From: Melioribacteraceae bacterium
GTDB taxonomy: Bacteria; Bacteroidota; Ignavibacteria; Ignavibacteriales; Melioribacteraceae
Assembly: GCA_041674325.1 (NCBI GenBank)
Contig: JBAYWA010000001.1
Span: forward strand, 1 to 27,353
DNA length: 27,353 bases
Reading direction: 5' to 3'
Below, piece by piece: positions 2,223-21,692 of this stretch; position 1 is the stretch's first letter, and each line of letters opens with the position of its first letter. Under the pieces are notes generated by a model. That model did not search any database, was not told the origin of the DNA, and saw nothing but the letters and a program-made list of their open reading frames with translations. Both the position numbers and the translations under genes were made by a program.

Positions 2223-3591
2223 ATCGCCTCTTCTTTTCCGGACCGGGTGGGGATTCCCAGATCATCCATTTTCCGGTAGAGTGAAGAGAGGCCTATTTCC
2301 AGCGCTTTGGCGGCCTCGTCTTTATTGTAATCAAATTTTCTGATGGTCTTCAGAATATGCTCCTTTTCAAAATCCTTTATAGCATCCTTAAGCGCGTCGG
2401 GATAGCCTTCCTGAATATTACCTCCTTTTATATGCTCGGCGAGGTCCGCAACTGTTATGGTTTCATTTGAAGCGAAGATTATCGCCCTCTCAATTACATT
2501 TTCCAATTCGCGAACACCGCCTCTCCAATCATGCGCTAAAAGTATTTTCATAGTTGCGTTATCAATACCAATTATCCTCTTACCCATCTCCTTACTGAAC
2601 TTCTCAATGAAATGGCTGACGAGGAGCGGGATGTCTTCCGACCGTTCATTTAAAGACGGGAGTTTTATCTCTATCACATTAAGCCGGTAATAAAGGTCCT
2701 CTCTGAATTCGTTGTCTTCGTCTTTTCAAACAAATCCTGATTTGTAGCCGCTATAATTCTCACATCCGTGGTGACGGATTTAATGCCTCCGACCGGAATG
2801 AACTCGCGGTCTTCTATTGCTCTAAGAAGCTTAACCTGAAGGTTAAGGGGCAGTTCCCCGATCTCATCAAGAAAAAGTGTGCCGCCGTCGGCGACTTTGA
2901 ATAGACCGGTTTTATCTTCTGTTGCTCCCGTAAACGATCCTTTCTTATGACCGAACAATTCACTCTCAATCAGATTTTCCGAGATGGCCCCGCAGTTTAT
3001 TGGCAGAAATATTTTTTCTTTTCTGCCGCTGTTTTTGTGGATAGCTTTTGCGACCAGTTCCTTTCCGGTACCGCTTTTCCCAAAAATTAAAACATTACTG
3101 TTAGTAGGGGCAACCTGAGAGATAATGTCGAAAACTTTTTTCATCGGCTGGCTCTTCCCGATAAGATTAGTAAATCCGGTATCGGAAGAGATTCTTTGTC
3201 TTAAAGATTTGTTCTCGGCTGCGAGCGTTTTATAGTCGATCAGTCTTTTTACTCTTATAATTACATCCTCAAATTCAACGGGCTTAATAAGATAATCATA
3301 AGCTCCGCAGCGCAGCGCGTCGATTGCAGTTTTTACGGAGGCAAATGCTGTCATTATGATAAAAAAAGTTTCCGGTGAAATTTTGGAGGAGGACTCGAGA
3401 AGCTGCATGCCGTCCAGTTTTGGCATTTTAATATCTGAAATCACAACATCATAAGAATTTTCCTGAATCTTTAACAAGGCCTCTTCGCCGTCTCCGGCTG
3501 TATCGGTAATGAAGCCCTCTTCGGCCAGAACCATTTTGAGGGAATCGCGGATCGGTTTCTCATCGTCGACTATAAGAATTTTTGAGGGCAT
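2219..3591 (-). pseudogene. Sigma-54-dependent response regulator (NtrC/AtoC family: receiver, AAA+, Fis HTH), interrupted by a 1-nt frameshift. This is either a pseudogene or a sequencing error.
   Basis: ORF 2674-3591 has the receiver (LIVDDE, SDIKMP), Walker A (GKSGTGKE), ESELFGH..GSFTGA and Walker B (LFLDEIGEL). The conserved NEFREDLYYRLNV continues in another frame and joins ORF 2219-2677 (IEIKLPSL, WRGGVRELENVIERA, HTH NKDEAAKALEIGLSSLYRKM). Confidence 0.85.
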
Positions 3592-5103: not shown

Positions 5104-5288
5104 AAATTCAAGGGCAATTCCGTATGAATGGTTCTCCCACTTAGTAATGCGAAAAATAAAGAAAGATGCTTTAGAATGAAAGCCGGCTGGACCTATTGCT
5201 AATACATTCTACCATACTGGAACTGAAAAATTCTATCAATGTATAAGATTCAGTTTCGTTATCTTTGACTAAACAGTGGAAAATCACA

Positions 5289-6893
5289 ATGGAAAAAAGA
5301 GCTCTGACCTTAATAATAGTTTTTTTTGTTTCTTCGTTGATAATCGCATCAGATGAAATAATAGTCAAGTCCTCCCCCTCAAACGTCAAAGTTTTTCTCA
5401 GAGGCGCGCAGCTGCACCACTCTTCAAAAGTCAAACTGGAAAAGGGAATGAATGAAATTGTCTTTACCGGACTTGCCTCAAATATAGACCGCAACAGCAT
5501 CAGCTTTTCAACTAAAGGGGAAGCCGTAATTATTTCAGTCACACAACGGTTCGATTTTCTGCGTGCAAAGGAAAAAAGTCCACAGATAAAAATTTTGGAG
5601 GACTCGCTGGAGTCTCAAGTCAGATTGCTCACATTCAGCCAGAATGAAACTGAGGCACTAAAAGCAGAGATTGAATTAATACTGGCGAATAAAATTCTCG
5701 GGAATGAAAAGACCGGAGTATCGGTTCCGGATCTTCAAAAAATGGGTGAATATTACCGTAAACGGCTGACGGAAATAAAGAGTAAAATGTACGACCTTTC
5801 GTTAAACACGCAAAAGTACCAGAAAAATGTTGAGCGGATTCAGAATCAATTGAAAGAATTGAATAATAAACTTAATGTTCCAGTAAATGAAATTGTTGCT
5901 ACTGTATCGGCTAAATCAGCGGAAATTCTGGAAGCTGATCTATCATATCTGATTTACGATGCCGGATGGCTGCCGGCTTACGATTTAAGAGCAGAGAATG
6001 TATCATCACCGGTATCATTAAGTTATAAAGCCGAAGTCTGGCAGAACAGCGGATTTGACTGGGATGATACGAAGATAATTCTCTCAACAAGAAATCCTGC
6101 TTCAAATAATAATAAGCCTGAAATTAATACCTGGTTCTTGGATTTTGAACGGGCTCAGTTATATAAAGAGTTTAAATTGGGCGCTCAAAGAGGAGGGGCG
6201 GATAATGTAATGCAGGCAGTATCGGAAGTGGCGGCCTCTCCTAAAACTGAAACGATGGCCGATTTTTTCGATGTTCTTGAGACTCAGCTTTCATATGAGT
6301 TTACTCCTACAATTATTTATTCAATCCCGTCGGATAATAAGCCCCACACAATTTCGCTAAGGGAATTACTTATTCCGGCAAAATATGAATATTACAGCGC
6401 CCCTAAGCTTGATGATAACGCATTCCTTGTAGCGAAGCTGACAGATTGGAAAAACTATAATTTGCTTCCGGGAGAAGCTAATATCTATTTTGAAAATTCT
6501 TATGTTGGACAGACGCGCATCGATCCCGAAACAACTCTTGACACTCTTGTTTTTTCAATGGGACGCGATCAGAATATTTCAGCTTCCCGGGAAGTGCTGA
6601 AGGATTTTTCGGAAGATAAATTTCTGAGCAGCAATGTAGAACGGACATTTGCCTTCGAGATCAGAATTAAAAATAATAAAAAGGGGACGGTCAAAATTTT
6701 AACTGTGGATCAGATTCCCGTTTCGAAAAATGAAGATATAGTTGTTGAACTGGTTGATTCCTCCGGAGCGGCCTATGATCCAGGTTCTGGCAAAGTAAGC
6801 TGGAACATCGAAGTTGAGGGGGGAAAGTCGGTCGTGAAGAAATTAGTCTATTCAGTAAAATATCCGAAAGACAAAAAGATTCAGGGATTGTGA
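5289..6893 (+). CDS. DUF4140/DUF4139 exported protein (mucoidy inhibitor MuiA-like family)
   Basis: The ATG at 5289 gives a signal-peptide-like N-terminus (MEKRALTLIIVFFVSSLIIA). It has V.VFLRGAQL, a coiled-coil middle, AGWLPAYDLR, Y.A.VWQNSGFDW, LSTRNP, SIPSD, LLPGEANIYF and V.DQIPVSKNEDIV. Confidence 0.85.
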   Translation: MEKRALTLIIVFFVSSLIIASDEIIVKSSPSNVKVFLRGAQLHHSSKVKLEKGMNEIVFTGLASNIDRNSISFSTKGEAVIISVTQRFDFLRAKEKSPQIKILEDSLESQVRLLTFSQNETEALKAEIELILANKILGNEKTGVSVPDLQKMGEYYRKRLTEIKSKMYDLSLNTQKYQKNVERIQNQLKELNNKLNVPVNEIVATVSAKSAEILEADLSYLIYDAGWLPAYDLRAENVSSPVSLSYKAEVWQNSGFDWDDTKIILSTRNPASNNNKPEINTWFLDFERAQLYKEFKLGAQRGGADNVMQAVSEVAASPKTETMADFFDVLETQLSYEFTPTIIYSIPSDNKPHTISLRELLIPAKYEYYSAPKLDDNAFLVAKLTDWKNYNLLPGEANIYFENSYVGQTRIDPETTLDTLVFSMGRDQNISASREVLKDFSEDKFLSSNVERTFAFEIRIKNNKKGTVKILTVDQIPVSKNEDIVVELVDSSGAAYDPGSGKVSWNIEVEGGKSVVKKLVYSVKYPKDKKIQGL

Positions 6894-6911
6894 AGGTTTT
6901 GGCTTTTTACT

Positions 6912-6941
6912 CGCTGGCTCGGTAATTCGAGCCAGCGTTTT
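6912..6941 (+). terminator. Rho-independent terminator-like hairpin between the convergent DUF4139 and neuB genes
   Basis: A perfect 10-bp stem CGCTGGCTCG/CGAGCCAGCG (6912-6921, 6928-6937) with a 6-nt loop is followed by TTTT on the + strand. The flanking TTTACTC/GAGTAAA can extend the pairing. There is no U-tract on the - strand. Confidence 0.7.
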
Positions 6942-6983
6942 GAGTAAACCGGGAGAAAATCAAATCACGAAGATAGGTAGTAC

Positions 6984-7877
6984 TCAGGCGGTAATATTAG
7001 GTTTGATTTTTCTGAGTTTGTCTATGCTTTGATATTCACTGCCGTAGACTTTTTTCACTCCATCTCCCAGCGCTTTTTCAAGGTCGCGAATATCCTGAAC
7101 AAGTTTTAGCATTCCGTTCACCTCAACTGAAGCGGCCTGATCGGTTCCCCACATCGCGCGGTCTAGTGTAATATGCCTCTCAACAAAGGCGGCGCCCAGT
7201 GCGACCGCGCCGAGTGTCGGGGCTAAGCCGGTTTCATGTCCGGAATAACCGATAGGCACTTCCTGGAATTTTTCTTTGTACGTTTTTATCACATTCAGAT
7301 TTAACTCCTCCAGAGCGCATGGATAATTTGAAGTAGTCTGGGCGATCATCAAATTATCTGTGCTCAAAATTTCCACAGCTTCTTCAATCTCATCTATTGC
7401 GGACATGCCCGTGGAGAGAATTACGGGTCTTCCTGTGGCTTTAATTTTTCTGAGAAGCTTGTGGTCAGTCAGACAGGCAGAAGCGATTTTATGCATAACT
7501 GGTTTGAATTTTTCCATAAAGTTCAACGCCTCTTCATCCCAGGGAGAAGCAAACCAATCAATCCCTTTCTGCCTGCAATATCCATCAATCTCCAGATATT
7601 CTTCGAATCCGAATTCAACTTTATGGCGGTATTCGAGATACGTTATTCTTCCCCAGGGAGTTTCTCTTTCGATATTCCATTGATCTTTAGGCACGCACAA
7701 TTCGGGTGTTCGCTTTTGAAATTTAACAGCGTTGCAGCCGGCGAAGACGGCTCCGTCGATCAATTTTTTCGCGAGTTCCAGCGATCCGTTATGATTTATC
7801 CCGATTTCGGCGATAATATAAACGGGTTCTCCGTCTCCGATCCATCTATTTCCGACTTTAACTTTGCTAATTTTCAT
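6984..7877 (-). CDS. neuB: NeuB-family ulosonic acid (phosphate) synthase, short form lacking the C-terminal SAF/antifreeze-like domain
   Basis: Motifs IAEIGINHNGS, AVKFQKR, FASPWD, KIASA, ILSTGMS, TSNYP, IGYSGHE and VERHITLDR..WGTDQAAS. It is 297 aa and ends right after LGDGVKKV. Confidence 0.93.
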   Translation of the reverse strand: MKISKVKVGNRWIGDGEPVYIIAEIGINHNGSLELAKKLIDGAVFAGCNAVKFQKRTPELCVPKDQWNIERETPWGRITYLEYRHKVEFGFEEYLEIDGYCRQKGIDWFASPWDEEALNFMEKFKPVMHKIASACLTDHKLLRKIKATGRPVILSTGMSAIDEIEEAVEILSTDNLMIAQTTSNYPCALEELNLNVIKTYKEKFQEVPIGYSGHETGLAPTLGAVALGAAFVERHITLDRAMWGTDQAASVEVNGMLKLVQDIRDLEKALGDGVKKVYGSEYQSIDKLRKIKPNITA

Positions 7878-8410
7878 CTGCCCCTTTTATTAATTGTTTT
7901 TGCCTCGATAATTAATTCAGCCAGATCTCTGAAGGCCCCGCAACCGCCGTTACTTTCTACAACCACATCAACGATGTTTTTGGCAAACTTTGTAGCATCA
8001 TTTGGACAAGCTGAGAGACCAACACGCTTCAATATTTCCAGATCGTTTGTATCGTCACCGATAAATGCTATCTCCCCGGCACTCAGATTTTTTCTGTTGA
8101 TAATATCCTCTAGTGTCTTTTCCTTTTCATAAACTCCCATGTGCAGTTCATCAATATTTAACTTTTGAGCTCTTGATTTGACTATCAGGGTATTCTCACG
8201 GGTAATAATTCCGGTTTCAACCCCAACAAGTTTTTTCAGGCGTTCAACACCCATCCCGTCTCTTATAGAATACCGCTTCATCAATTCACCCTTTTCGGAA
8301 TAATAAACGCCGGTGTCCGTTAGAACGCCATCGACATCCGTTAAAAGCAATTTAATTTTAGAAGCGCGCTTAAGAAGCTGGCTCCTTGTCAATTTTTTTT
8401 TCATACTCAT
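7874..8410 (-). CDS. HAD phosphatase of the KdsC/YrbI family (probably a nonulosonate-9-phosphate phosphatase)
   Basis: Motif I DVDGVLTD, DGMG, motif II IITRE, K and motif IV AFIGDDTND. Its stop overlaps the neuB start (ATGA). Confidence 0.9.
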   Translation of the reverse strand: MSMKKKLTRSQLLKRASKIKLLLTDVDGVLTDTGVYYSEKGELMKRYSIRDGMGVERLKKLVGVETGIITRENTLIVKSRAQKLNIDELHMGVYEKEKTLEDIINRKNLSAGEIAFIGDDTNDLEILKRVGLSACPNDATKFAKNIVDVVVESNGGCGAFRDLAELIIEAKTINKRGR

Positions 8411-8476
8411 TCTATTCTTAAAGGTTCTTAAATCAATTTATCTTTTTTTATACTTTTTCCCTAATTACCCAAAATA

Positions 8477-9280
8477 TTACCAGCAGGTCCAGCCGCCATC
8501 GACAACAAGGTTTGCCCCGGTCATATAAATTGACGCGTCGCTGGCAAGGAAAATCAATGCTCCTCTATAATCCGAAGGATTTGCCATTCTTCCAAGCGGA
8601 GTTTTAGTCGAATATTTTTCAACGAAAAATTCATCCTGATTATTAAACACGCCGCCGGGTGTAAGAGTGTTAACGCGCACTCCATCCTTTCCCCAGTATG
8701 CAGCCAGATATTTAGTGAACATAATCACGGCCCCTTTTGTGGCGGAGTAAGCAGGCGGCTTATAAAAAGACTGTGATCCGTCCTCTTTGATATATAACGA
8801 TTGGTCCGGCGCTGTTAAACCGTATGTAGACGCTATGTTTATTATACTACCCGATCTTTGTTTTGCCATCTCAGTCCCTATAATCTGTGATGCTAAAAAA
8901 ACGCCGGTCAGATTCACATCAACAGATTTTTGCCACAATTCAAGAGGATAATTTTCAAATTTTGACTGTTCGCTTGCGGCTTTTGGATCTTCGAACATAT
9001 CATTAATTGCGGCATTGTTCACAAGGATATCAATTTGTCCGAACTTCCTGATTATTGTATCTTTTAAAATTTTGACCGATTCCGGTTTAGTCACATCAAG
9101 CGCGGCGCCGAGTGATTCTGTTGCAAGGGTTCCGGCAAAATTCACGCATCCGCTTTCGTCAATATCGGCCACTACGACATTCGCCCCTGCCTCACTTAGA
9201 GCACGGCAATGTTCCCGGCCTATCAAGCCGAGAGCTCCTGTAACGACCGCTGTTTTATTCTCCAGATTAAAAATATTCAT
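8477..9280 (-). CDS. Short-chain dehydrogenase/reductase (PtmA-like, probably NAD-preferring)
   Basis: TGALGLIG, an acidic residue after beta-2 (VADID), NNAA, INIASTYG, catalytic YSATK, VRVNTLTPGG and NLVVDGG. Confidence 0.92.
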   Translation of the reverse strand: MNIFNLENKTAVVTGALGLIGREHCRALSEAGANVVVADIDESGCVNFAGTLATESLGAALDVTKPESVKILKDTIIRKFGQIDILVNNAAINDMFEDPKAASEQSKFENYPLELWQKSVDVNLTGVFLASQIIGTEMAKQRSGSIINIASTYGLTAPDQSLYIKEDGSQSFYKPPAYSATKGAVIMFTKYLAAYWGKDGVRVNTLTPGGVFNNQDEFFVEKYSTKTPLGRMANPSDYRGALIFLASDASIYMTGANLVVDGGWTCW

Positions 9281-9293
9281 TCAGATCTCAAAT

Positions 9294-10628
9294 TTATTTT
9301 TTTACCGGTTTCATATTGAAATTATCCACTTTTCTAAACACTGGCAGCACAGGTTTTCCCAGAAGCATTTCCTTTAAATTATTTTTTTTGACCGCGTTTT
9401 TAAGGAACACAAGTGATTCTTCCAGCGCCTGGAGAGTGTAATTTACATCTGCATCGCTATGGGAAAAAGAAAGATTATGAAATCCCTGCCACAAAACGCC
9501 ACGTTTTATCATCTCCTGCTGCATCAGAGATTTCTGAATAAGGGGATCTCCCGCTTTTTCATCGAATGTAGCCATTGACCGCCAATTGTATCCGACAGCC
9601 TTCGTGTAATCCATTCCCAAATTCTGAGCTATTGTATTATATCCTTCCTTCAATTTTTTTCCCTGGTCGCTGAGATATTGAGGAACGTTTTTATCCCGCA
9701 GCTCCTCTATAGTTGCTTTCGTTGCCGCCAGAGAGAGTGCCTCGCCTCCGAACGTTGTATAAAAAAAGATATCATCATCAGCAAGATCCATAATTGATCT
9801 TTTACCTGTCAGAATAGAGATGGGCATTCCGTTGGCGACTGCTTTTGAGAAGGTTGCCAGATCCGGGGTAATTCCGAAATACTCCTGAGCCCCGCCGAGC
9901 GCCATTCTGAAACCCGTCCACATTTCATCGAATATAAGCACAATACTTTTTTCTTTACAGAGATCTGCCAGCTTATGCAGAAAATTATCTTTCGGCTCAG
10001 CAAATACAACTGGTTCCAGTATAATTGCCGCCACATCATCGTCAATCGATTTTCTTACAGAGTCGATGTCATTGTAATTAAAAGTATATGATATTGCCTG
10101 TACAGCTTCGGGTATTCCATGATTACGGGCGGTTACAGCTATGTACCAATCGTGCCATCCGTGGTAGCCGCAGCATAGAATTTTATTCTTCCCTGTATGA
10201 GCGCGTGCAAGACGGACTGCGGCACTTGTTGCATCAGCACCGGTTTTGCTGTACCGGACGGCTTCAGCATTCGGCACGACTTCCCTAATTAATTCCGCAA
10301 CTTCCACTTCAAGCGGGTGCATCATCGAAAAAGTAATTCCGTCTTTCAATTGTTCTTTTATCGCCGTGTCAATTTTGGGATAGGCATAGCCAAGTGAAAG
10401 GGGACCAACGCCCATCATGTAATCGATATATTCATTGCCGTCAACATCCCACACATGAGACCCGCTGCCCCGCACTAAATATTTGGGAGCTATCCCGTTC
10501 ACCCACTGACCGGGTCCCTTTGCAAGGGTTTGGGTGACTGATGGTATTAATCCAAGCGCGCGATTGTATAATTCGTCGGATTTAGAAATATCAGGATAAT
10601 TATTTTGAAGTGAAATTTTGTTCGGCAT
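9294..10628 (-). CDS. Class III PLP-dependent aminotransferase (glutamate-1-semialdehyde aminomutase-like), probably acting on a sugar
   Basis: VWDVDGNEYIDY..G.GPLSLG, GYHGW, ILEP, LIFDEMWTGFR and PLP-lysine TFSKAVANGMP. A GAGG RBS precedes the ATG. Confidence 0.92.
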   Translation of the reverse strand: MPNKISLQNNYPDISKSDELYNRALGLIPSVTQTLAKGPGQWVNGIAPKYLVRGSGSHVWDVDGNEYIDYMMGVGPLSLGYAYPKIDTAIKEQLKDGITFSMMHPLEVEVAELIREVVPNAEAVRYSKTGADATSAAVRLARAHTGKNKILCCGYHGWHDWYIAVTARNHGIPEAVQAISYTFNYNDIDSVRKSIDDDVAAIILEPVVFAEPKDNFLHKLADLCKEKSIVLIFDEMWTGFRMALGGAQEYFGITPDLATFSKAVANGMPISILTGKRSIMDLADDDIFFYTTFGGEALSLAATKATIEELRDKNVPQYLSDQGKKLKEGYNTIAQNLGMDYTKAVGYNWRSMATFDEKAGDPLIQKSLMQQEMIKRGVLWQGFHNLSFSHSDADVNYTLQALEESLVFLKNAVKKNNLKEMLLGKPVLPVFRKVDNFNMKPVKK

Positions 10629-10742
10629 AGTACCTCATAAATCAAACCGTCAGTTTTTGGAAAAAGTTCAGTCAACTTATCAAGATTAAGTGCAAAGTTA
10701 TGTGATCTCTTCCACACAATAATGATATTACTAAACTAATAG

Positions 10743-11654
10743 CTAATCTCTAGAAGCTAATCGCTTAAAAATTTTGCCAGCAATTCTATCAGCTGTAAAT
10801 CCCTCATACTCTAAAACATCATTCAGCAAACCCGGCCTGAACCACTTGTTCATCAAAGCGAAAGGGAGAACATCCGCGGTTTTTTTGTTCCTCAGAAGCA
10901 CTTCGGCAAGTATGGAATAGAGGCCGCCGGTAACAAAATGATCTTCCAGTGTAACGATCAATCTGCATTCTTCTGCCGCTCTCAGGATTGCGGCTTCGTC
11001 CACCGGTTTCGGTGTTCTAATATTAATCAGCCGTACCGATACCCCTTTTGATTCAAGTATCTCTTTTGCCTTGAATGCCTCTCCAAATAAAAAACCGTAA
11101 ACCAGAATTGCTACATCATTCCCGCCTCCAAAAACTTCTGCTTTTCCGATCTCAAAGCTGTTATGTTCCACTAAGTTTTTTGTATTGTTATACCGGATAT
11201 AGAATGGGGAAGGGCTTGTAAAAACTGCTTTCAGGCCTTTCAGCATATCGTCCTCGTCCGCGGGGCAGAATAGATTTACGTTTGGAATTCCTCTCATGAT
11301 TGAGACATCCTCGATTGCCTGGTGTGTTGGTCCGTTGCCGTCCGATAAAAATCCCGGTACCGCCCCTACAATTTTAACCGGAAGATTGGCAATTCCCACG
11401 TCGGTACGGATAAATTCGAATGCTCGCATCGTTAAAAATGTAGCAAGGGCATGAACAATCGGCGTCCTGCCGCGTAATGCCAATCCGGCAGCCATTCCTA
11501 TCATTGTCTGTTCGGTAATGCCCGTATCTATAAAATTATTTTTGATCAGAGGGGGAAGATTTCTGAAAGCTGCCCTGTTCTCCGAAGTCATTATTATATA
11601 ACGGTCATCATTATTTATAAGATCGAGTACAATATCTGCATATGTCATTATCAT
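10743..11654 (-). CDS. Transketolase-like ThDP enzyme, C-terminal (pyrimidine-binding and C) subunit
   Basis: DTGITEQTMIGMAAGLA, GPTHQAIED, FCPAD, YIR, IGKAEV, KPVD and LEDH..TGGL. ATGA overlap with the N-terminal subunit gene. Confidence 0.92.
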   Translation of the reverse strand: MIMTYADIVLDLINNDDRYIIMTSENRAAFRNLPPLIKNNFIDTGITEQTMIGMAAGLALRGRTPIVHALATFLTMRAFEFIRTDVGIANLPVKIVGAVPGFLSDGNGPTHQAIEDVSIMRGIPNVNLFCPADEDDMLKGLKAVFTSPSPFYIRYNNTKNLVEHNSFEIGKAEVFGGGNDVAILVYGFLFGEAFKAKEILESKGVSVRLINIRTPKPVDEAAILRAAEECRLIVTLEDHFVTGGLYSILAEVLLRNKKTADVLPFALMNKWFRPGLLNDVLEYEGFTADRIAGKIFKRLASRD

Positions 11655-12508
11655 CTCGCAACAATGGTTTCTGAAGTTAACTTGGTTTTTTTTGCGCCGT
11701 GCAATTCTTTGAGGAGCTGCTCAATCTCTTCCTGCTTGAAATTTACGAACCAGCGGTCTGCCCGTTTTTCTATGCTTGGCAATCCCTTGCCTCTAACCGT
11801 CTCGGCAATTACTACGGACACCTTACCTTTTTCGAATGGAAATTTTTTGAATGTCTCCTCCATCTTCTCAAAATTATGGCCGTTTACTTTTCTGACTCTG
11901 CATCCGAAAGCTTCAAATTTTTTGTTTAGCGGTTTGAGAGGAATTAAATCTTCAGTCTGCATATTAGCCTGAAACTGATTCCTGTCAACTACTATTAGCA
12001 AATTATCAAGATGATATGCAGATGCAACAAGAAGCGCTTCCCACATTGATCCTTCGTTAAGCTCTCCGTCTCCAACCACAACTACAACTCTGTTCTTTTG
12101 TTTGCGAAGTTTGCAGTCGATAGCAACTCCCATCGCGACTGAAAGATTGTGGCCGAGCGAACCGGAATGAAATTCTATGCCGGGAATGTTTCTGTTAGGA
12201 TGCCAGTAGATGAAATCATTTGTGCTCAGATGATTTTTCAGCCTTTCTTTTTCAAGCAGACCAATTTCTACATATGTGCCGTAGAGAGCCGGTACATCGT
12301 GTCCTTTCGAGAGGAAAAAGTAGTCCCTCTTGGGATCACTGAGATTTTCTTTGGATACTTTCAGAAATTCCTTATAGAGGTAAACTATCAGATCGGCACA
12401 GGAGAGGGATGCGCCGATAAAACAGCCGCCACGCCCGCTCATTCCGATAATATGTTCTCGGACTCTTAGCGCCGTTTCCTGTAATTCGAGTAATTTTTTT
12501 TTATTCAT
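11651..12508 (-). CDS. Transketolase-like ThDP enzyme, N-terminal (diphosphate-binding) subunit
   Basis: RDYFFLSKGH, HP...PGIE..SGSLG and the ThDP motif GDGELNEGSMWEA...LDNL..VVDRN. Also FG..V..VNGH and TVRGKG. Confidence 0.92.
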   Translation of the reverse strand: MNKKKLLELQETALRVREHIIGMSGRGGCFIGASLSCADLIVYLYKEFLKVSKENLSDPKRDYFFLSKGHDVPALYGTYVEIGLLEKERLKNHLSTNDFIYWHPNRNIPGIEFHSGSLGHNLSVAMGVAIDCKLRKQKNRVVVVVGDGELNEGSMWEALLVASAYHLDNLLIVVDRNQFQANMQTEDLIPLKPLNKKFEAFGCRVRKVNGHNFEKMEETFKKFPFEKGKVSVVIAETVRGKGLPSIEKRADRWFVNFKQEEIEQLLKELHGAKKTKLTSETIVAR

Positions 12509-13308
12509 TTTAAGTTCAATTTGTTTTTGTATTCGTCAATGTGATTAAGTTCATTAAGATGATTTTCGTACCAGTATTTACCTAGATATTTTCTGTTGAT
12601 TGAGGCAATTTCCGGTTTTCGTACAAGTAAATCTAATATATCGTTAAGACTAAAAGTAGGATTCCCGGGATAAAGTTCTTCATAAATATTTTTTATTAGC
12701 CGGTAATCCTCCTCATAATCGATTGTCCACCGATGGGAGGCTGAAAAATCCTTACCTGCCTCCCATCCTATATTTGCAACTCTGAATTTACCGGGATTTT
12801 CCCAGAAGTATGGGGTGGTGTGTTCGCGTTCAAAAGTCTTCCCGGCTTCTTTCCATGCGGTTATAAGTGCTTTAAAAGAAAAAATTTCAACATCGTTGCC
12901 GTCCGGATAGCTTGCCGGATGAAGGTTGCTGACATAATCGAATTTATCATTACTTTTAATAAAGAACGATAATACTTTGTCGATTATTCCCGGGTCAATC
13001 AGCGGGCAGTCGGAAGGAATTTTCACTACCGCATCTGCGCCGTACTTTTTGCCCGCCTCATAATGCCTGTCAAGAAGATCCGCCAGATTTCCCCTGAAGC
13101 ATTCAATCTTTTCCCTTTTGCACAATTCAGCCACCGGATCATCGTCTTTATACAGAGAAGTAGCAACAACAATCATTCCGGCTAATTTAGAAAAGGAGAC
13201 ACGTTCTGTCATCCGGAGTAGAAGAGGTTTACCCAGAATAGGCAGCATTATTTTTCCCGGTAATCTGGTAGATGACATTCTCGCCTGTATGACTGTAACA
13301 ATCTTCAT
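12505..13308 (-). CDS. SpsF-type acylneuraminate/ulosonate cytidylyltransferase (NTP_transf_3 family)
   Basis: IQARMSSTRLPGK, PSDCPLIDP, YPDGNDVE, REHTTPY and RWTIDYEED. ATGA overlaps on both sides. Confidence 0.88.
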   Translation of the reverse strand: MKIVTVIQARMSSTRLPGKIMLPILGKPLLLRMTERVSFSKLAGMIVVATSLYKDDDPVAELCKREKIECFRGNLADLLDRHYEAGKKYGADAVVKIPSDCPLIDPGIIDKVLSFFIKSNDKFDYVSNLHPASYPDGNDVEIFSFKALITAWKEAGKTFEREHTTPYFWENPGKFRVANIGWEAGKDFSASHRWTIDYEEDYRLIKNIYEELYPGNPTFSLNDILDLLVRKPEIASINRKYLGKYWYENHLNELNHIDEYKNKLNLK

Positions 13309-14312
13309 TTATAATCGAATTTTTTATGAATTTCGTCTAATGCTGCGTCAGGAAAATCAATTAAATATTTTCCCAGGCGAGCAATCCTTTCCGCGGATGA
13401 TCCGTTATTCTGGATAGGCTGCAGTTTTTTAAGTTGTTCGATATCGTAATATGAATGGACTTCTTTTCCCAGCGCCAGTCCGATATAAACCGTTGAAGAA
13501 AATTTTGTGATCAGGAGATCGCAGTTCGCGATCATATGATTGGTATTCCCTGTCGAAAAAACCAGAGCGCCCGGCGCTATCTCGCTAATCTCTTTTGAGG
13601 CGCGCTCAACGTTCTCATTTGGGTGCAATTTAAAGATAAGCTGCCTTCCCTTTGCGATATTCACACACTCTCTGATGAATTTTTTCCGGTTTTCGATTTT
13701 GTAGGTCTCTCTCGCATCCGAAGTGCAGACAAGAGCAAAATTTTTATGCGGAAAGTCATTATTCAGAAATTGTACGGCATTATCAAAATTCGGAATTCCT
13801 GTTACAATTATTTTTTCGGCTTTGGCCCCTTTGCGGATGAAAAAATCTTTGTAGCCGTAAGAAGCAACGCAGAACAACGTATATAAGTCGGACATCCCCA
13901 TTGTTGATGTGCTCGCCAGCCACCGGTAGAGTTTGAGATATTTAACCAGATAGAACATTAAATTTTCCGGATCGGTCATTCCCTCCTGAACCAGGATTAC
14001 TTTTTTGCCGCGTATATTTTTCGGCACAATCAGGTCCGCGCAGGTATAAACCAGGTCGTAATTATATTTTTCGCCCCGGTAATCCATCTCCAGACCGTTA
14101 TTTGACAGATATTCTTCAGTTTTCCAACGGAACGGCCCGTTCAGAATCGAAAATTTTCCGTACCCTCTACTCACTCCGTAATTGATCCAGCCGTCGCCGT
14201 AATAGGGAGTGAATAAACAATCGAATTCATTCAAATGCAGGGATATCTGATGCATCATGGAAGTCTGATTGAGCGAACCGCAAATAAAAAGAATTTTTTT
14301 CTTTGTCATCAA
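13305..14312 (-). CDS. Putative GT-B fold CMP-ulosonate glycosyltransferase (hypothetical protein)
   Basis: VQEG (109-111), IIVTGIPNFD, FKLHP (227-231) and ITKFSSTV..GLALGK (SST 272-274) resemble GT-B sialyltransferase and TagF-like motifs. It is the first gene of the coupled operon. Confidence 0.6.
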   Translation of the reverse strand: MMTKKKILFICGSLNQTSMMHQISLHLNEFDCLFTPYYGDGWINYGVSRGYGKFSILNGPFRWKTEEYLSNNGLEMDYRGEKYNYDLVYTCADLIVPKNIRGKKVILVQEGMTDPENLMFYLVKYLKLYRWLASTSTMGMSDLYTLFCVASYGYKDFFIRKGAKAEKIIVTGIPNFDNAVQFLNNDFPHKNFALVCTSDARETYKIENRKKFIRECVNIAKGRQLIFKLHPNENVERASKEISEIAPGALVFSTGNTNHMIANCDLLITKFSSTVYIGLALGKEVHSYYDIEQLKKLQPIQNNGSSAERIARLGKYLIDFPDAALDEIHKKFDYK

Positions 14313-14437: not shown

Positions 14438-15514
14438 ATGAATAACTTAGATCCCCGGCTGATGGTATATGGGGCAAACGGATATTCCGCGCAGCTGATA
14501 ATAGAGGAACTTATCGCAAGAAAGATCAATCCGGTCCTTGCCGGGCGGAATAAAGAAGAGGTAAGTTCGCTGGCTCAAAAATATAATTTGGAGTTTAAAA
14601 TATTTGACCTATCCGACGAGAAAGAAATCTTAGTATCGCTGGAAGGAATTCATACATTAATAAATTGCGCCGGCCCCTTTAAGTACACGGCTAAAGAACT
14701 AATGGAGGCCTGTCTGCAATCAAAAACGAATTATCTGGATATTACCGGGGAAATGCCGGTGATGCATCTGGCGTTTTCGATGATAGATAATGCCAGGGAG
14801 AAGGGTGTTGTAATTATGCCGGGTGTCGGGTTTGATATAATACCTACTGATTGTCTGGCAAAAAGATTAAGCGAAAGAATGCCTGATGCGGATAATCTTA
14901 AACTGGGTTTTTTAAATAAACGCGGAAAAATTTCAAGGGGTACGATGATTACAACTCTTGAATTTTTGGGCGGAACCGGGAAAATAAGACGCAATGGAAG
15001 AGTGATTGATTCAAAAATAGGCGAATTCAGAGTCAAATTTAAGAGGGGAAACTTTTCATTTAAAGGTATATCTATACCTTGGGGAGATGTCTACTCCTCG
15101 TATCACTCAACCGGAATAAAAAACGCTGAGGTGTATCTTGCCTTGCCGGGAGTGATAATTAAACTCCGTACAATTCTGCTTTTTGCTTTACGGTTATTAA
15201 AGATAGATTCGGTCAAAAATATTGTGAAGAATTACATCGGTAAAAATCTGACGGGGCCGGCAAAAGGGGAGCGTGATTCTGCCGAAACTTATATTTGGGG
15301 GCGTGTGGAATCGAAAGATGGAAGAAAAATCGAGGAGATCTACAGGGTGATGGAAGGTTATACACTTACTGCCAAGGGCGCCGCGGAATGTTCTGAGAGG
15401 GTATTGAATAATGAAGTATGTCCCGGCACATATACACCGTCTCTTGCTTTCGGAAGCGGATTTCTCGAACATTTTATAATCGAAAAAATTTATTCATCGG
15501 CCGGGGATATCTGA
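14438..15514 (+). CDS. Saccharopine dehydrogenase-like NAD(P)-binding oxidoreductase
   Basis: Rossmann motif VYGANGYSA, LAGRN, NCAGPF, YLDITGE, GVGFDIIPTD and SRGT..T. Confidence 0.85.
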   Translation: MNNLDPRLMVYGANGYSAQLIIEELIARKINPVLAGRNKEEVSSLAQKYNLEFKIFDLSDEKEILVSLEGIHTLINCAGPFKYTAKELMEACLQSKTNYLDITGEMPVMHLAFSMIDNAREKGVVIMPGVGFDIIPTDCLAKRLSERMPDADNLKLGFLNKRGKISRGTMITTLEFLGGTGKIRRNGRVIDSKIGEFRVKFKRGNFSFKGISIPWGDVYSSYHSTGIKNAEVYLALPGVIIKLRTILLFALRLLKIDSVKNIVKNYIGKNLTGPAKGERDSAETYIWGRVESKDGRKIEEIYRVMEGYTLTAKGAAECSERVLNNEVCPGTYTPSLAFGSGFLEHFIIEKIYSSAGDI

Positions 15515-16826: not shown

Positions 16827-16923
16827 GATTTATTCGATTTTATTTATACCGAAATTAAACACAAAAAAGTTAATGTGAAATGGAGAAGAGTTGTTTAAAT
16901 TTGCTCTTGGAAAAGGAGCAATT

Positions 16924-17325
16924 ATGTTTACCACCAAAGTTAAAGTCTATTTCTACGACGCGGACCCCGCCGGAATTATTTTCTACGCCAGTTTATTCAA
17001 ATTTGTTCACGCGGCGTATGAAGATTTTATGAGAGGATTGCATACCGAGCGGGATTATTTTTTCGATAAAGATTATATACTGCCGATAATTCACGCGGAG
17101 GCCGATTACGTAAGGCCGATTAAGGTCGGCGATGAATTGAGAGTTGATGTAGTCGTGAGTCTGCTGAAAAATTCTTCTTTTGAATTAAGTTATAAATTTT
17201 ACAAATCGGACGGACAGTTTACAGCAATCGCCAAAACGGTTCATGTTTGTGTGCAGAAAGATCAGTTCAAGAAAATTGAACTGCCGAAGGAATTTCTGGA
17301 AAAGATGAAGCTTAATCTAAATTGA
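16924..17325 (+). CDS. Hot-dog fold acyl-CoA thioesterase (4HBT class), probable DHNA-CoA hydrolase (MenI function)
   Basis: The ATG at 16924 follows an AAGGAG RBS. It has YFYDADPAGIIFY, HAEADY..P...GD.L.V and SSF.LSY. Its 3' end overlaps menE by 14 bp. Confidence 0.8.
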   Translation: MFTTKVKVYFYDADPAGIIFYASLFKFVHAAYEDFMRGLHTERDYFFDKDYILPIIHAEADYVRPIKVGDELRVDVVVSLLKNSSFELSYKFYKSDGQFTAIAKTVHVCVQKDQFKKIELPKEFLEKMKLNLN

Positions 17326-18808
17326 GCTCTTTGAGAAGTGCAGGACGGATTATTTTACCCATCTCATTTCTTGGCAGAATGGCGAGTTGAAAAATTCGTT
17401 TTGGTATTTTATATCCGGCGAGTTTTGTTTTTAAAAATTTTTTCAGATCATTCTCTTTAATATCAGCACATTCAACAGCCGCACAGACAATCTGACCCCA
17501 ATTTGAATCTTCTAAAGAAAAAACATAAACATCGCTGACTCCCGGGAATGTACTGATCGCGTTTTCGACTTCGGCACAGCTGACATTCTCGCCCCCGGTA
17601 ATTATAAGATCCTCACGTCTCGATTCAACGAACAGGTATCCATTATTATCAATTCTGCCTAAATCCCCGGTATGATACCATCCGTTTATAATTTTTCCGG
17701 CTGTAGCCTCAAAATCCTTGTAATATTCTTTGAACAAAGAATCCGAAGCGATATAAATTTCTCCCGACTCCGGCACCATCGAATTGGCCTCATCATTTTC
17801 AGGCAGACTGTGCTGAATCATAATTCTGTTCTGCCCCAAGGGCTTTCCTGATGAGGAGATGTAATTTCTGAAAGATGTTGCCGGCAGGGCGGTAACCATT
17901 GAACAAGTTTCAGTTGAGCCGTATACTTTTACAACCGGCCATCCTCTGTCAATTGCATCCAGATAGAGTTGTTCTTCCGACGGTCCTCCGCCCAGAAATA
18001 AAAATCTTAAATTTGAAGCCGGAGAGAAATTATTCTTTAATAAACGGTGAAGCATTGTTGGAACTAATGAGATGCACGTCGGACGAAATTGCCTAATCCC
18101 GGCAACGATATTCTCATATCTTAACCCGGAAGGGAACACAAGCGCGGAGCCGGAGATTAGTGAACGGATCAAAATCATAAATCCGCCGATATGAAAGAGA
18201 GGGAGGGAAGAGAACCAAATATCATCATCCGATAGCATCGCGAAAGAATCGGTTGCTTTAACGCTCTGATAGAGACTTCGGAATGTATGAACAACAGCCT
18301 TGGGATCGCCGGTGCTTCCTGATGTGAACATTATCAAAGAAGGATCAAGAGGAGAATAATCTGCTGACCTTAGCACATTATGCTTTTCCGGATTCGTAAC
18401 TATATGATCTTTTGTCTCCCGGAATGGAAAGTGAATTTTATCGGGAAAACTCAATTCTGAATATTGCGCCGCTGTTTTTTCATCAAAAATGAGAAATTTG
18501 ATCTCAACTTTGTTTATCTGCTTTTCAAGTTCGGCCGGCAGAAGTTGCGTGCTTATCGGAACAGGAACCGCCCCAATAATCCAGAGAGCATTTATGATAG
18601 TTAAAAAATTATAGTTGTGACTGAATAAAACAGCAATCCGGTCGCCCTTACAAATTCCATTGTCAATCATAAATTCAGCGGCGGCAAAACATTCATCCGC
18701 CAATTCCCCGTAAGTGATAATCCTATCTTCCAGAATCACCGCGTTTTTACCCGGCTGCTTTTCAGATTGTTCAATAATCCAATGCTTTGTACTTCCCGCG
18801 GATATCAT
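17312..18808 (-). CDS. menE: o-succinylbenzoate-CoA ligase
   Basis: Adenylate-forming motifs FTSGSTGDPKAV, LPLFHIGG, YGSTE, YHTGDLG, RREDLIITGGENV, AGYKIPK and NEMGKI. It is the last gene of the men operon. Confidence 0.9.
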   Translation of the reverse strand: MISAGSTKHWIIEQSEKQPGKNAVILEDRIITYGELADECFAAAEFMIDNGICKGDRIAVLFSHNYNFLTIINALWIIGAVPVPISTQLLPAELEKQINKVEIKFLIFDEKTAAQYSELSFPDKIHFPFRETKDHIVTNPEKHNVLRSADYSPLDPSLIMFTSGSTGDPKAVVHTFRSLYQSVKATDSFAMLSDDDIWFSSLPLFHIGGFMILIRSLISGSALVFPSGLRYENIVAGIRQFRPTCISLVPTMLHRLLKNNFSPASNLRFLFLGGGPSEEQLYLDAIDRGWPVVKVYGSTETCSMVTALPATSFRNYISSSGKPLGQNRIMIQHSLPENDEANSMVPESGEIYIASDSLFKEYYKDFEATAGKIINGWYHTGDLGRIDNNGYLFVESRREDLIITGGENVSCAEVENAISTFPGVSDVYVFSLEDSNWGQIVCAAVECADIKENDLKKFLKTKLAGYKIPKRIFQLAILPRNEMGKIIRPALLKELNLD

Positions 18809-19872
18809 AAGAGCTTCAGATCAAAAAAATTAGGATATGTCTCCGGATTAAAATCGATTCTCCCGTTTTTTATTACATACGGATCGGGGAATAGACTGTT
18901 CTTAAAATAATCCGAAGTATCGAGGCCATGGGGAAGGGAATGGTTAACTGAAGCAGCCAGAAACACTAAAGCGTTTTTTCCTACCGGACTTTCAAACGAT
19001 GAGGAGATAATAATTTTCTTTTTTTTCTTCTCCGCTTCTTTGATAAGTTTCAATGAGGAGAGGATTCCGCCCAGAATCATCGGTTTAAGGATAAGAAATT
19101 CAACATTGCAGTGATTTATCAGGTCTTCAGCTCTTTCAAATGAAACAAGCGATTCATCAAGTGCGATAGGTACGGGTGAATCTTCAATCAAATGGAAATT
19201 GCTGCACACAAATTCGCACGGTTCCTCAACGTAGTCGATATTAAATTGCTGGAAACGGTCAAGGTATTCCAACGCTTCATCAGCGCTCCATGCCCGGTTC
19301 GCATCCAGTCTCAAATTAATATTACCCCCGAATTCATTACGTATCTCCTTTAGGAGGAGAAAATCATCTAAAACATCATTCCGGCCTATTTTAATTTTAA
19401 ACGTGGTGAATCCATCACGAATCTTCCTCCTGATTTTATTCAGCACAAAATCCTTGCTGCCGATTCCTACAACAGCATTTGAAGGGACGGATAAATTAAA
19501 TTCATCAAAATAATCAGATAATATTTTTCTGTTCCGGAGGATTAACAGATTTACCAATGCCTGCTCAAAAGCGAATCGGAGTGACGGGGTAAGATTGTGT
19601 CTTACTGTAAAAACCTGGACCGATTCGAAATTATCGTCAATCTTTTCTCCCGGAATACGGGTCTGTAAACTTTCCAATAGTTGCTTCGAATCATCAAGAG
19701 ACTCACTGCTGAATCCGGGCAATGGCGAGCATTCTCCGGAAGCGCGGTTATTAAACTCGTCTCTCAATTCTATTATAAATCCGCTACGTTGACTTATTGT
19801 TTTTGTTGAAGTATGAAATGGAGATTGCAGATCGAGAGAAAAATAAATGTATTTAAATTCTGATATTGTCAT
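18805..19872 (-). CDS. menC: o-succinylbenzoate synthase (enolase superfamily)
   Basis: GECSPLPGFS.E, the KxK motif FKIKIG, metal ligands LDAN..W, VEEP and ALDES, LKP, and HGL.T. Confidence 0.9.
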   Translation of the reverse strand: MTISEFKYIYFSLDLQSPFHTSTKTISQRSGFIIELRDEFNNRASGECSPLPGFSSESLDDSKQLLESLQTRIPGEKIDDNFESVQVFTVRHNLTPSLRFAFEQALVNLLILRNRKILSDYFDEFNLSVPSNAVVGIGSKDFVLNKIRRKIRDGFTTFKIKIGRNDVLDDFLLLKEIRNEFGGNINLRLDANRAWSADEALEYLDRFQQFNIDYVEEPCEFVCSNFHLIEDSPVPIALDESLVSFERAEDLINHCNVEFLILKPMILGGILSSLKLIKEAEKKKKKIIISSSFESPVGKNALVFLAASVNHSLPHGLDTSDYFKNSLFPDPYVIKNGRIDFNPETYPNFFDLKLL

Positions 19873-20786
19873 AATAGAATTCCGGCTGCGAAAAGCAATC
19901 CATAGAGGGCTGATAGCTTGGCCGTAAGTTCCAGAGTCTTATTTAATTCGCTGCCCCTCTTTGTATAGATCATTCTGATCAACTTTACCGCGAGGGGTAA
20001 ACTCAGAAGGGGAAGAAAGACAAAAATTTCTTTTTTAAATGTAAAGTAAACTATAAAGAGTATAGAATAAGAAATCAGCATGAAAAAGAGGTACTGAAAT
20101 CGTCCGAACTTTTCCCCGAAAATCACAATAAGTGTTCTCTTTCCGTTTGAACTGTCCTCTTCCCGGTCCCGGTAATTATTGACTACCAGAATGTTTGTTA
20201 TTAATGCGCCCACCGGCACGGAAGCCCAGAATGCCATGGCGCTGAACTCATTTGCCTGCACATAGTAAGTGCCCACAGTTCCTACAAAACCGAAGAAAAG
20301 AAATACCGCAATATCTCCCAATCCGTTATAGGCCAATGGAAACGGACCTGCCGTGTATGCGATCCCGGCCAGAATTGAGAGAATTCCAATAATCAGTATG
20401 AACCAGCCGCTGTGAATTATCAGATACAAACCGAGGAGGAAACTTAAACCGAATGAAAAATATATTCCGAACTTCATCTCGTTGACAGACAGGAGTCCCG
20501 AGACAGTTGCTCTCTGGGGACCAACGCGGTCAGCTTTATCGGAACCGCGGAGGAAATCGAAAAGATCATTAACAAAATTAGTTCCGATTTGAATAAGCAG
20601 CGAACATAGAAGGGCAATTAAAGCCGCCAATGCATTAAATTTAAAATCATTAATCGCAATTGCAGATCCCACTACAACCGGAACAATTGCGGCTGCAAGA
20701 GTTCTTGGCCGGCTTGCCAGAATCCAGGCATTAGTTTTTGAGGTTAAATTATTCAGGGATTGAGCCATTCTTTGTCTTGTTTTCAA
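19869..20786 (-). CDS. menA: 1,4-dihydroxy-2-naphthoate polyprenyltransferase
   Basis: W..ASRPRTL, NFVNDLFD..RGSD...R.GP, YT.GP..LAY.GLGD and NNYRD..ED...GKRTL, with multiple transmembrane helices. An alternative start at MAQSL is possible. Confidence 0.93.
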   Translation of the reverse strand: MKTRQRMAQSLNNLTSKTNAWILASRPRTLAAAIVPVVVGSAIAINDFKFNALAALIALLCSLLIQIGTNFVNDLFDFLRGSDKADRVGPQRATVSGLLSVNEMKFGIYFSFGLSFLLGLYLIIHSGWFILIIGILSILAGIAYTAGPFPLAYNGLGDIAVFLFFGFVGTVGTYYVQANEFSAMAFWASVPVGALITNILVVNNYRDREEDSSNGKRTLIVIFGEKFGRFQYLFFMLISYSILFIVYFTFKKEIFVFLPLLSLPLAVKLIRMIYTKRGSELNKTLELTAKLSALYGLLFAAGILL

Positions 20787-20851
20787 TTCGATTAATCGGT
20801 TAATAAAGTGAGCAGCGAAGCATTCAGAGTGAATACTTCATATCTTTTTGA

Positions 20852-21685: not shown

Positions 21686-21692
21686 TATTACC

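Follow-up and report, generated by a model that had tools for sequence, protein, structure and literature searches.

A widespread operon of Ignavibacteria and other bacteria predicted to make a CMP-activated amino-deoxy ulosonic acid

We analyzed a 27,353-nucleotide stretch of DNA, referred to here as the window, from a metagenome-assembled genome (MAG; 74% complete) of a Melioribacteraceae bacterium (Ignavibacteriales), in which eight minus-strand open reading frames (ORFs; 6984-14312) form a cassette. The cassette represents an operon found in many genomes. In a reading that we favor with moderate confidence, its enzymes would build an amino-deoxy ulosonic acid of the type of Kdn (deaminated neuraminic acid), activate it with CMP and pass it to an acceptor in the cell envelope. 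The reading draws on conserved gene order, on gene fusions that pair the enzymes and, above all, on a counterpart in Chlorobiaceae. The operon is real, widely conserved and biochemically unstudied, and is akin to the systems that make Kdn and the amino derivative of 3-deoxy-octulosonate (Kdo) known as Kdo8N.

Gene content of the cassette

The ORFs are closely packed, with 4-nt overlaps at four junctions and gaps of 13-114 nt at the remaining ones. An earlier note, made from the letters of the window, had placed eight co-oriented genes between unrelated neighbors on the opposite strand, and the coordinates agree exactly with that description; Pfam and NCBIfam confirm the families of the second to eighth genes. 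The features are listed in the direction of transcription, with their flanks.

14438-15514, plus strand: saccharopine-dehydrogenase-like protein, unrelated flank (Pfam)
13305..14312, minus strand: GT-B fold protein (GT), first gene of the operon, 335 aa; no Pfam match, predicted GT-B fold
12505..13308, minus strand: SpsF/NeuA-type cytidylyltransferase (CT); CTP_transf_3 PF02348, E 3.7e-27
11651..12508, minus strand: N-terminal (PP-domain) subunit (TK-N) of a transketolase-like (TK) thiamine diphosphate (ThDP) enzyme, optional module; Transketolase_N PF00456
10743..11654, minus strand: C-terminal (Pyr + C domain) subunit of the same ThDP enzyme, optional module; Transket_pyr PF02779 and Transketolase_C PF02780
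9294..10628, minus strand: class III pyridoxal phosphate-dependent aminotransferase (AT), similar to glutamate-1-semialdehyde (GSA) aminomutase; Aminotran_3 PF00202
8477..9280, minus strand: classical short-chain dehydrogenase/reductase (SDR), an oxidoreductase; PF13561, PF00106
7874..8410, minus strand: KdsC-family C0 HAD phosphatase; NF058599 157.6 bits, TIGR01670 135 bits
6984..7877, minus strand: short NeuB-family phosphoenolpyruvate (PEP)-condensing synthase without a SAF domain; PF03102 E 2e-76, no PF08666 match
6912..6937, no strand: G+C-rich hairpin of 11 bp between the convergent NeuB and DUF4139 genes
5265-6893, plus strand: DUF4140/DUF4139 protein, unrelated flank (Pfam)

The hairpin is likely a bidirectional terminator that closes the operon. 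The grouping of these genes is far beyond chance; about 100 fetched loci repeat the same order.

Conservation of the operon

Orthologs of TK-N were surveyed in 301 genomes of the phylum, and 20 loci were fetched around them. Separately, a pattern search based on an alignment of the first gene identified at least 590 stretches in species-representative genomes, of which the best 80 loci were inspected. All eight genes stood in identical order in 11 of the 20 TK-N-centered loci, which came from various families of the phylum; three lacked the HAD gene alone, and the remainder were split. Genomes with split cassettes usually encode NeuB and the AT elsewhere. Nearly all of the best 80 GT-centered loci contained the cassette, including those of Melioribacter roseus, Ignavibacterium album (cultured), Rosettibacter primus and several Nitrospirota MAGs, with a recurring order of GT-CT-(TK)-AT-SDR-HAD-NeuB. 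Clustering the ORFs of about 103 loci into families gave counts of 95 for GT, 95 for CT, 89 for AT, 83 for SDR, 77 for NeuB, 74 for TK, 66 for HAD and 54 for a hydroxylase similar to OlsE. The conserved core is the GT-B protein, CT, class III AT, SDR, HAD and short NeuB, with the split TK as an optional addition. The check on co-occurrence that the earlier note had called for shows these genes to travel as a block in many families and in at least two or three phyla; the cassette is not a fixed eight-gene unit. The TK pair is optional, and most relatives carry a ninth gene. Within Melioribacteraceae the cassette is accessory, being carried by 10 of 16 near-complete genomes.

The ninth gene, present in 54 loci, encodes an FA_hydroxylase protein after NeuB whose top NCBIfam match is OlsE (ornithine-lipid hydroxylase), at a score far below the cut-off. 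The earlier gene list overlooked it because the window does not contain it. One Melioribacteraceae locus has the OlsE-like gene after NeuB, followed by OlsF and a GH10 gene, before the DUF4139 gene (L004:14575-18460), and another locus has the OlsE-like gene in the same place (L006:4077-4832); in the window, NeuB is followed directly by the hairpin and the DUF4139 gene (6894-6983). Judged against these two loci, the arrangement suggests that a segment downstream of NeuB was deleted in the window. The cassette of L004 also carries two insertions, a 23S-rRNA-IVP family gene (L004:9614-9970) and a DUF2807 gene (L004:11400-12083), with its order otherwise intact.

Gene fusions indicate which enzymes work together. 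In the metagenomic locus L028, which holds the whole cassette, AT is fused to SDR and HAD to NeuB. A search at the level of 50%-identity representatives found many fusions among AT relatives with 40-57% identity (AT-SDR, CT-AT, GFO-oxidoreductase-AT, GFO-CT-AT and GNAT-CT-AT). From the HAD-NeuB fusion the phosphatase is expected to act on the NeuB product, from the AT-SDR fusion the oxidoreductase and aminotransferase would form a pair, and the CT-AT fusions would couple amination to CMP activation. Fusions of CT and AT are seen in classical clusters of the pseudaminic (Pse) or legionaminic (Leg) acid type as well. A GSA-aminomutase-like gene stands beside a cytidylyltransferase in clusters of this type (L026, L029) and in Legionella O-antigen clusters (Sg6/Sg12; PMC3694923). 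By these gene contexts, the AT module is a recurrent, uncharacterized, putative tailoring unit of nonulosonic acids. The AT scores 389 bits against PRK06209, whose cut-off is 486 bits, and is 85-90% identical in more than 120 clusters.

Six loci (L065, L079, L080, L082, L093 and L110) came from bins labeled Patescibacteria, Hyphomicrobiales, Caldilineaceae or Bacteroides and hold Ignavibacteria-type cassettes (60-70% identity). The taxonomic labels of these bins are probably wrong; L065, for one, hardly differs from a Bacteroidota MAG.

A counterpart in Chlorobiaceae

An ortholog of the GT (~50% identity) is present in 55 of the 63 genomes of a family that we identify as Chlorobiaceae, since each of its five genomes tested encodes the FMO protein. 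All eight Chlorobiaceae loci, from three genera, place this gene in a five-gene operon with LPG_synthase_TM, CTP_transf_3, iron-containing alcohol dehydrogenase (Fe-ADH) and DegT aminotransferase genes, in the order LPG_synthase_TM, GT, CTP_transf_3, Fe-ADH, DegT. The HAD and NeuB orthologs form a separate pair elsewhere in these genomes, with a NeuB 60-66% identical to that of the window. Orthologs of the class III AT and of the SpsF-like CT were not found in the five Chlorobiaceae genomes searched. The top solved relative of the DegT enzyme is KdnA (5k8b, E 2e-83), with the next match at 4e-46. KdnA is an 8-amino-3,8-dideoxy-octulosonate transaminase that acts on the finished acid Kdo, and its Shewanella partner KdnB is a Kdo 8-oxidase of the Fe-ADH family (PMC5125639).

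The same GT, HAD and NeuB are therefore found with two unrelated oxidase/aminotransferase pairs, which argues that either pair would oxidize and then transaminate an ulosonic acid. We regard this as the strongest evidence for such a role of the pair. Judged by sequence, the Fe-ADH and KdnA-like pair of Chlorobiaceae is a non-orthologous displacement of the SDR and class III AT, first shown here.

Proposed pathway and comparison with known systems

We propose that the short NeuB would condense PEP with a sugar phosphate, most likely mannose 6-phosphate (Man-6-P), and that the KdsC-type HAD would dephosphorylate the product to a free deaminated ulosonic acid. The SDR would then oxidize one hydroxyl to a carbonyl, which the class III AT would turn into a free amine, with the terminal carbon favored; the favored product of this step would be a 9-amino-9-deoxy-Kdn-type acid, an isomer of neuraminic acid. 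The cytidylyltransferase would form the CMP-sugar, and the GT-B protein would transfer the sugar, probably onto a membrane lipid. The substrate of KdnA is Kdo with a terminal aldehyde, and omega-transamination is typical of class III enzymes, so a terminal amine is favored, a position that is possible by analogy. The earlier suggestion that NeuB, a phosphatase and CMP activation, joined to a redox/amination pair, yield a free-amine ulosonic acid gains support from the AT-SDR, HAD-NeuB and CT-AT fusions and from the Fe-ADH/KdnA-like pair of Chlorobiaceae.

The first steps resemble the Kdn route, in which Man-6-P is converted to Kdn-9-P, Kdn and CMP-Kdn in Prymnesium parvum and Bacteroides thetaiotaomicron (PMC6200933). 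The CMP-Kdn pathway of B. thetaiotaomicron comprises BT1714 (Kdn-9-P synthase), BT1713 (Kdn-9-P phosphatase) and CMP-Kdn synthetase (UniProt Q8A710-Q8A712); the cassette shares with it a NeuB-family synthase, a KdsC-type HAD and a cytidylyltransferase, and would likewise follow a phosphorylated route without NeuC or a kinase. It differs in its extra SDR, class III AT and optional TK-like enzyme, in its dedicated GT-B protein, and in the lipid hydroxylase of its relatives. The HAD scores 157.6 bits with the Kdn-9-P phosphatase equivalog model NF058599, below its cut-off of 180, and 135 bits with TIGR01670, above that model's cut-off. Its top PDB matches (3e81, 3e8m and 4hgo, E 1e-31) are ahead of KdsC enzymes, and its aligned TRE and K positions correspond to TGE and K of the top-matching solved phosphatase chain. 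We take 3e81 and 3e8m to be BT1713 of Bacteroides. The top PDB match of NeuB is a 290-aa short NeuB (6ncs); for CT, 6oew (E 2e-40) comes first and KdsB enzymes next. We count the closeness of the HAD to Kdn-9-P phosphatase and the lack of a SAF domain in NeuB in favor of a phosphorylated, Kdn-like route.

Taken by themselves, NeuB, HAD and CT correspond to the Kdn route with its three enzymes, which raises the alternative that the cassette makes ordinary Kdn or Kdo, with the SDR, AT and TK as unrelated passengers. This is highly improbable. Of about 103 loci, 83-89 keep the AT and SDR in place. In other lineages these two are joined in fusions with one another and with CT, and Chlorobiaceae have a pair of analogous function in their stead; the genome has its KdsA gene elsewhere. 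The conservation and fusion of the SDR and AT argue for a product other than unmodified Kdn. A housekeeping role of the cassette in Kdo synthesis was rejected, as a canonical KdsA scoring above its cut-off is encoded on another contig of the source genome. A different contig also holds a second, stronger NeuB-family match (G000:C4:2473-3189, locus L001; 326 bits, in a 354-residue open frame), so that the source genome likely has a separate nonulosonic acid pathway.

The Kdo8N pathway of Shewanella oneidensis (KdnB + KdnA) offers a close parallel in logic: an acid, oxidation of a hydroxyl, transamination and CMP activation. In the window, both the Fe-ADH KdnB and the DegT KdnA are replaced by the unrelated SDR and Aminotran_3 enzymes, while the Chlorobiaceae version has a KdnA-like transaminase and an Fe-ADH. 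Also unlike Kdo8N synthesis, the acid of the window would come from NeuB and a Kdn-type phosphatase rather than KdsA, and as a dedicated candidate transferase is encoded, WaaA is not implied. With the N-acetylneuraminic (Neu5Ac), Pse and Leg pathways the cassette has NeuB-family condensation and CMP activation in common; it differs in having a phosphatase, in a NeuB without SAF, and in lacking a 4,6-dehydratase, a DegT aminotransferase, an N-acetyltransferase and a clear NeuC. No Pfam family of a NeuC-type 2-epimerase, PseB/LegB dehydratase, DegT aminotransferase or N-acetyltransferase was found in the eight genes. No description of this gene set turned up in the literature library searched, and the genome paper of M. 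roseus is silent on the cluster; within that scope, the earlier statement that no characterized pathway with this set is known is supported.

The order of the steps could differ. SDR and AT, with TK where present, might instead make an amino-sugar phosphate by a logic like that of PtmA/PtmF or of aminoDAHP synthesis, which NeuB would then join to PEP, leaving an internal amine as in neuraminic acid. The top NCBIfam model of the SDR is PRK09186, presumably the PtmA flagellin-modification family, and aminoDAHP synthesis for rifamycin likewise brings together a PEP-condensing enzyme and a transketolase with an oxidoreductase, an aminotransferase and a phosphatase. The aminoglycosphingolipid of Chlorobium limicola, said to contain neuraminic acid, would also fit amination before condensation. 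We nevertheless judge this order quite unlikely: characterized KdnA, the relative of the Chlorobiaceae enzyme, acts on finished Kdo, the CT-AT fusions tie amination to activation and not to precursor supply, and the TK is dispensable and lacks phosphate-binding residues.

Several observations weigh against the pathway as we propose it, in which a finished Kdn-type acid is aminated, preferably at its end, and passed to a lipid. The Fe-ADH of Chlorobiaceae is not close to any solved KdnB; the entry 5k8c was not among its matches at E<=1e-20. AT relatives with 45-54% identity stand in Pse/Leg-type clusters; since the sugars of such clusters lack a terminal CH2OH, the group aminated by these relatives must be a ketone. 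The nearest named families of the SDR oxidize secondary alcohols of sugar acids; its top NCBIfam matches, PRK09186 and gluconate 5-dehydrogenase, are both below cut-off. The OlsE-like gene was not found in the window or in the rest of the 74%-complete genome, whose incompleteness leaves its absence unproven. Matches to the serine palmitoyltransferase model NF047600, examined for a sphingolipid acceptor, did not follow the presence of the cassette: one family (f19) has the cassette and no match, and sub-cut-off matches, probably Kbl/BioF-like proteins, occur in nearly all genomes, cassette-bearing or not. A sphingolipid acceptor is therefore unsupported. Finally, the model of the GT aligns best with a UDP-GlcNAc 2-epimerase (VIA-align Z 17.9) and NeuC (17.7), a result considered in the next section.

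The first gene as a candidate transferase

The product of the first gene has no Pfam match and weak NCBIfam scores to TIGR04396 and the BFO_1060 glycosyltransferase family, far below the cut-offs (36 bits for a cut-off of 125, and 25 bits for one of 200). The AlphaFold model (pLDDT 88) has a GT-B fold, for which Foldseek returned TagF-like capsule polymerases, UDP-GlcNAc 2-epimerases and SpsB. VIA-align gave Z scores of 14.7-15.3 for PglA, TagF (14.8) and TarL, and 14.0 for a polysialyltransferase. Across 17 orthologs, the motifs VQEGMTDPE, TGIPNFD and FKLHPNE are invariant, and QEG, HP and SS show little or no variation in the family alignment. QEG and HP correspond to motifs described as hallmarks of sialyltransferases (PMC7439481). 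Sialyltransferase-like and TagB-like nonulosonate transferases combine a GT-B fold with D/E-D/E-G, HP and S-S/T motifs; the GT of the window, with its predicted GT-B fold, similar motifs and family-model scores far below cut-off, may belong with them. With the fold taken from a model, we consider the first gene somewhat more probably a transferase than anything else, and a candidate CMP-ulosonate transferase.

Against this stands the possibility that the first gene provides the hexose, as a nucleotide-sugar 2-epimerase or hydrolase diverged from the NeuC/PseG type, in which case the cassette would make the CMP-sugar only and the transferase would lie elsewhere. Besides the structural matches, where UDP-GlcNAc 2-epimerases and NeuC lead at Z 17-18 and TagF, TarL and polysialyltransferase reach 14-15, hhalign of the GT profile to the epimerases gave 85% probability over 154 columns, with the equivalents of Asp95, an Arg and His213 aligned, and two orthologs have sub-threshold matches to Epimerase_2. 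The window protein itself had no Pfam Epimerase_2 match at E<=1e-3, the epimerase nucleotide motif DSGG-x-QEE and the PEE motif are absent from the family, and sequence scores are better to TIGR04396 and the BFO_1060 glycosyltransferase family. Moreover, motifs of the sialyltransferase type (D/E-D/E-G-like and HP) are invariant, a free hexose would make the NeuB-fused HAD unnecessary, and the Chlorobiaceae gene is joined in an operon to a flippase-like membrane protein and CT. An epimerase or hydrolase is accordingly an improbable identity. The earlier statement that the cassette has no NeuC stands insofar as the Pfam families of the eight genes include none, but it must be set beside a GT-like protein that is structurally closest to 2-epimerases and NeuC.

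The GT ortholog at L022:11233-12150 (G073) contains an in-frame TGA stop, perhaps through an error of sequencing or because the gene has decayed to a pseudogene.

The transketolase-like pair

The TK-N subunit belongs to a discrete orthogroup, present at >=58% identity in about 40 of the 301 genomes of the phylum, with a drop thereafter to <=41% for ordinary transketolases. Its top PDB match is the split transketolase 6yak of Carboxydothermus hydrogenoformans (EC 2.2.1.1), which resembles the pair in being built of two subunits and in having the ThDP/Mg motifs, the activating Glu and three His of the active site. We aligned 12 orthologs and compared their residues with those of human transketolase, of 6yak and of the phylum's ordinary transketolase-like genes. 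The ThDP/Mg motifs (GDG/N), the cofactor-activating Glu (GITEQ; Glu411) and the equivalents of His66, His100 and His473 are kept. The equivalents of His26 and His261 are Phe in all 12 orthologs and that of Asp469 is Asn in all; the equivalent of His461 is Val, Phe, Ile or another non-His residue, and those of Arg358, Ser385 and Arg520 are unconserved. We take it that, in Escherichia coli numbering, His26 and His261 hold the donor C1 hydroxyl, Asp469 contacts the acceptor, and Arg358, Ser385, His461 and Arg520 bind phosphate. The pair thus differs from split transketolase in having Phe for two donor His, Asn for the acceptor Asp and four changed phosphate-binding residues, as well as in being dispensable and located in a sugar-acid operon; ordinary transketolase-like genes of the same phylum retain both donor-binding His. 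On these residues, the TK-like pair is predicted not to be a normal transketolase and probably acts on a non-phosphorylated substrate. As the organism's ordinary transketolase it was rejected, since catalytic and phosphate-binding residues are changed in every ortholog, the orthogroup is discrete and many complete relatives lack it.

Nor is the pair an obligatory member of the pathway. About 19 otherwise intact cassettes, including those of M. roseus and R. primus, run from CT directly to AT, and a search of one complete genome that has the cassette GT (G097) for TK-N homologs at E<=1e-20 was empty. The AT tree calls for a minimum of 6 and as many as 13 changes of TK state, and the AT of TK-minus cassettes is 84-87% identical to that of the window, the same as for TK-plus cassettes. 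The tree indicates that TK was lost several times within the cassette family. The obligatory role was rejected on the strength of the intact TK-minus cassettes and the repeated state changes, and the extended or branched skeleton of the earlier proposal, built by a ThDP enzyme, is not supported as a defining step: the pair is absent from those cassettes, swapped for another gene in two, and repeatedly lost while the AT stayed ~85% identical. The TK-like pair is best described as an optional accessory ThDP enzyme with a putatively rebuilt substrate pocket.

A more limited alternative is that TK is integral where present. The SDR would oxidize the penultimate carbon of the free ulosonic acid to give a terminal ketol, TK would remove a two-carbon unit (or add one to an aldehyde), and the AT would aminate the new carbonyl, yielding a shortened (e.g. 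7-amino-heptulosonic) or lengthened amino acid sugar. The replacement of all canonical phosphate-binding residues fits a non-phosphorylated substrate made after the HAD step, the pair always lies between CT and AT, and a second, unrelated 656-aa TK-like gene fills the same slot in L093 and L110. The intact cassettes without any TK gene and the complete genome without a TK-N homolog speak against it, as do the 6-13 changes of TK presence among ATs so similar that their substrate is probably the same; with Phe for both histidines that hold the ketol donor C1 hydroxyl, ordinary ketol transfer is also disfavored. We consider an integral TK unlikely and retain the amination of an unshortened Kdn-type acid as the preferred route.

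The substitute gene in the TK slot of two MAGs (L093:4852-6822 and L110:11951-13921) belongs to a different, full-length 656-aa family with GSGHLGSS and PGKSHQ motifs that scores below the transketolase equivalog cut-off; paralogs lie outside the cassette in other Melioribacteraceae (L115, L116). Lone TK pairs (L013, L020, L021) have neighbors that include RmlD, IMPDH, undecaprenyl pyrophosphate synthase, aspartate aminotransferase, a glycosyltransferase similar to monogalactosyldiacylglycerol (MGDG) synthase, and OlsF, with no consistent partner among the three neighborhoods. The pair at L021:9460-16091 is of the cassette type, in a complete genome (G213) without the GT, AT or NeuB, and adjoins an MGDG-synthase-like GT28 gene, a DUF6938 protein and an OlsF-like gene; judged from this locus, the TK pair may have a lipid-related role of its own.

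The envelope acceptor

Lipid genes recur beside the cassette. In addition to the OlsE-like hydroxylase, OlsF-like ornithine-lipid synthase genes lie near it in 14 loci, and genes for LPG_synthase_TM/HpnL-like membrane proteins adjoin the GT in 7 non-Chlorobi loci and in all eight Chlorobiaceae loci; we count these neighbors together as support for a lipid acceptor.

The C. limicola aminoglycosphingolipid reportedly contains neuraminic acid. In a tentative proposal that we hold to be more doubtful than probable, the cassette and its Chlorobiaceae counterpart would be the head-group pathway of a ganglioside-like membrane lipid that receives, from a CMP donor, a nonulosonic acid with a free amine, either neuraminic acid or the isomeric 9-amino-Kdn, which would explain the C. 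limicola lipid of 1991; the remodeled TK, where kept, would edit the carbon skeleton of the free, non-phosphorylated ulosonic acid. We know of no transketolase-family member that edits the carbon skeleton of a free ulosonic acid. The C. limicola lipid was the subject of a 1991 paper (Jensen 1991), as cited in PMC11762602.

Other genes in the window

Elsewhere in the window, a minus-strand sigma-54 response regulator (2219-3591) is spread over two ORFs with a 4-nt overlap, one with the receiver and AAA+ core (2674-3591) and one with the AAA-lid and Fis-type HTH (2219-2677), representing either a frameshift or a genuinely split gene. A menaquinone biosynthesis operon occupies 17312-25606 on the minus strand, with Pfam families that fit MenF, MenD, MenH, MenB, MenA, MenC and MenE. 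It is flanked by a thioesterase gene (16891-17325) and a divergent MarR gene (25888-26313).

Implications

If the proposed pathway is correct, many environmental bacteria of the Bacteroidota group (Ignavibacteria, Chlorobiaceae and Kapabacteria-like lineages) and some Nitrospirota would display an undescribed, free-amine, sialic-acid-like sugar on their envelope. Its route would be independent of the Neu, Pse and Leg pathways and would have arisen twice, with different oxidase/transaminase pairs. The natural TK-plus and TK-minus strains could show how a sugar acid is changed by a TK-like enzyme whose active site has been remodeled. The aminoglycolipid of green sulfur bacteria contains an amino sugar acid that is still unexplained, and the operon would provide candidate genes for it, in a group that includes the genetically tractable Chlorobaculum.

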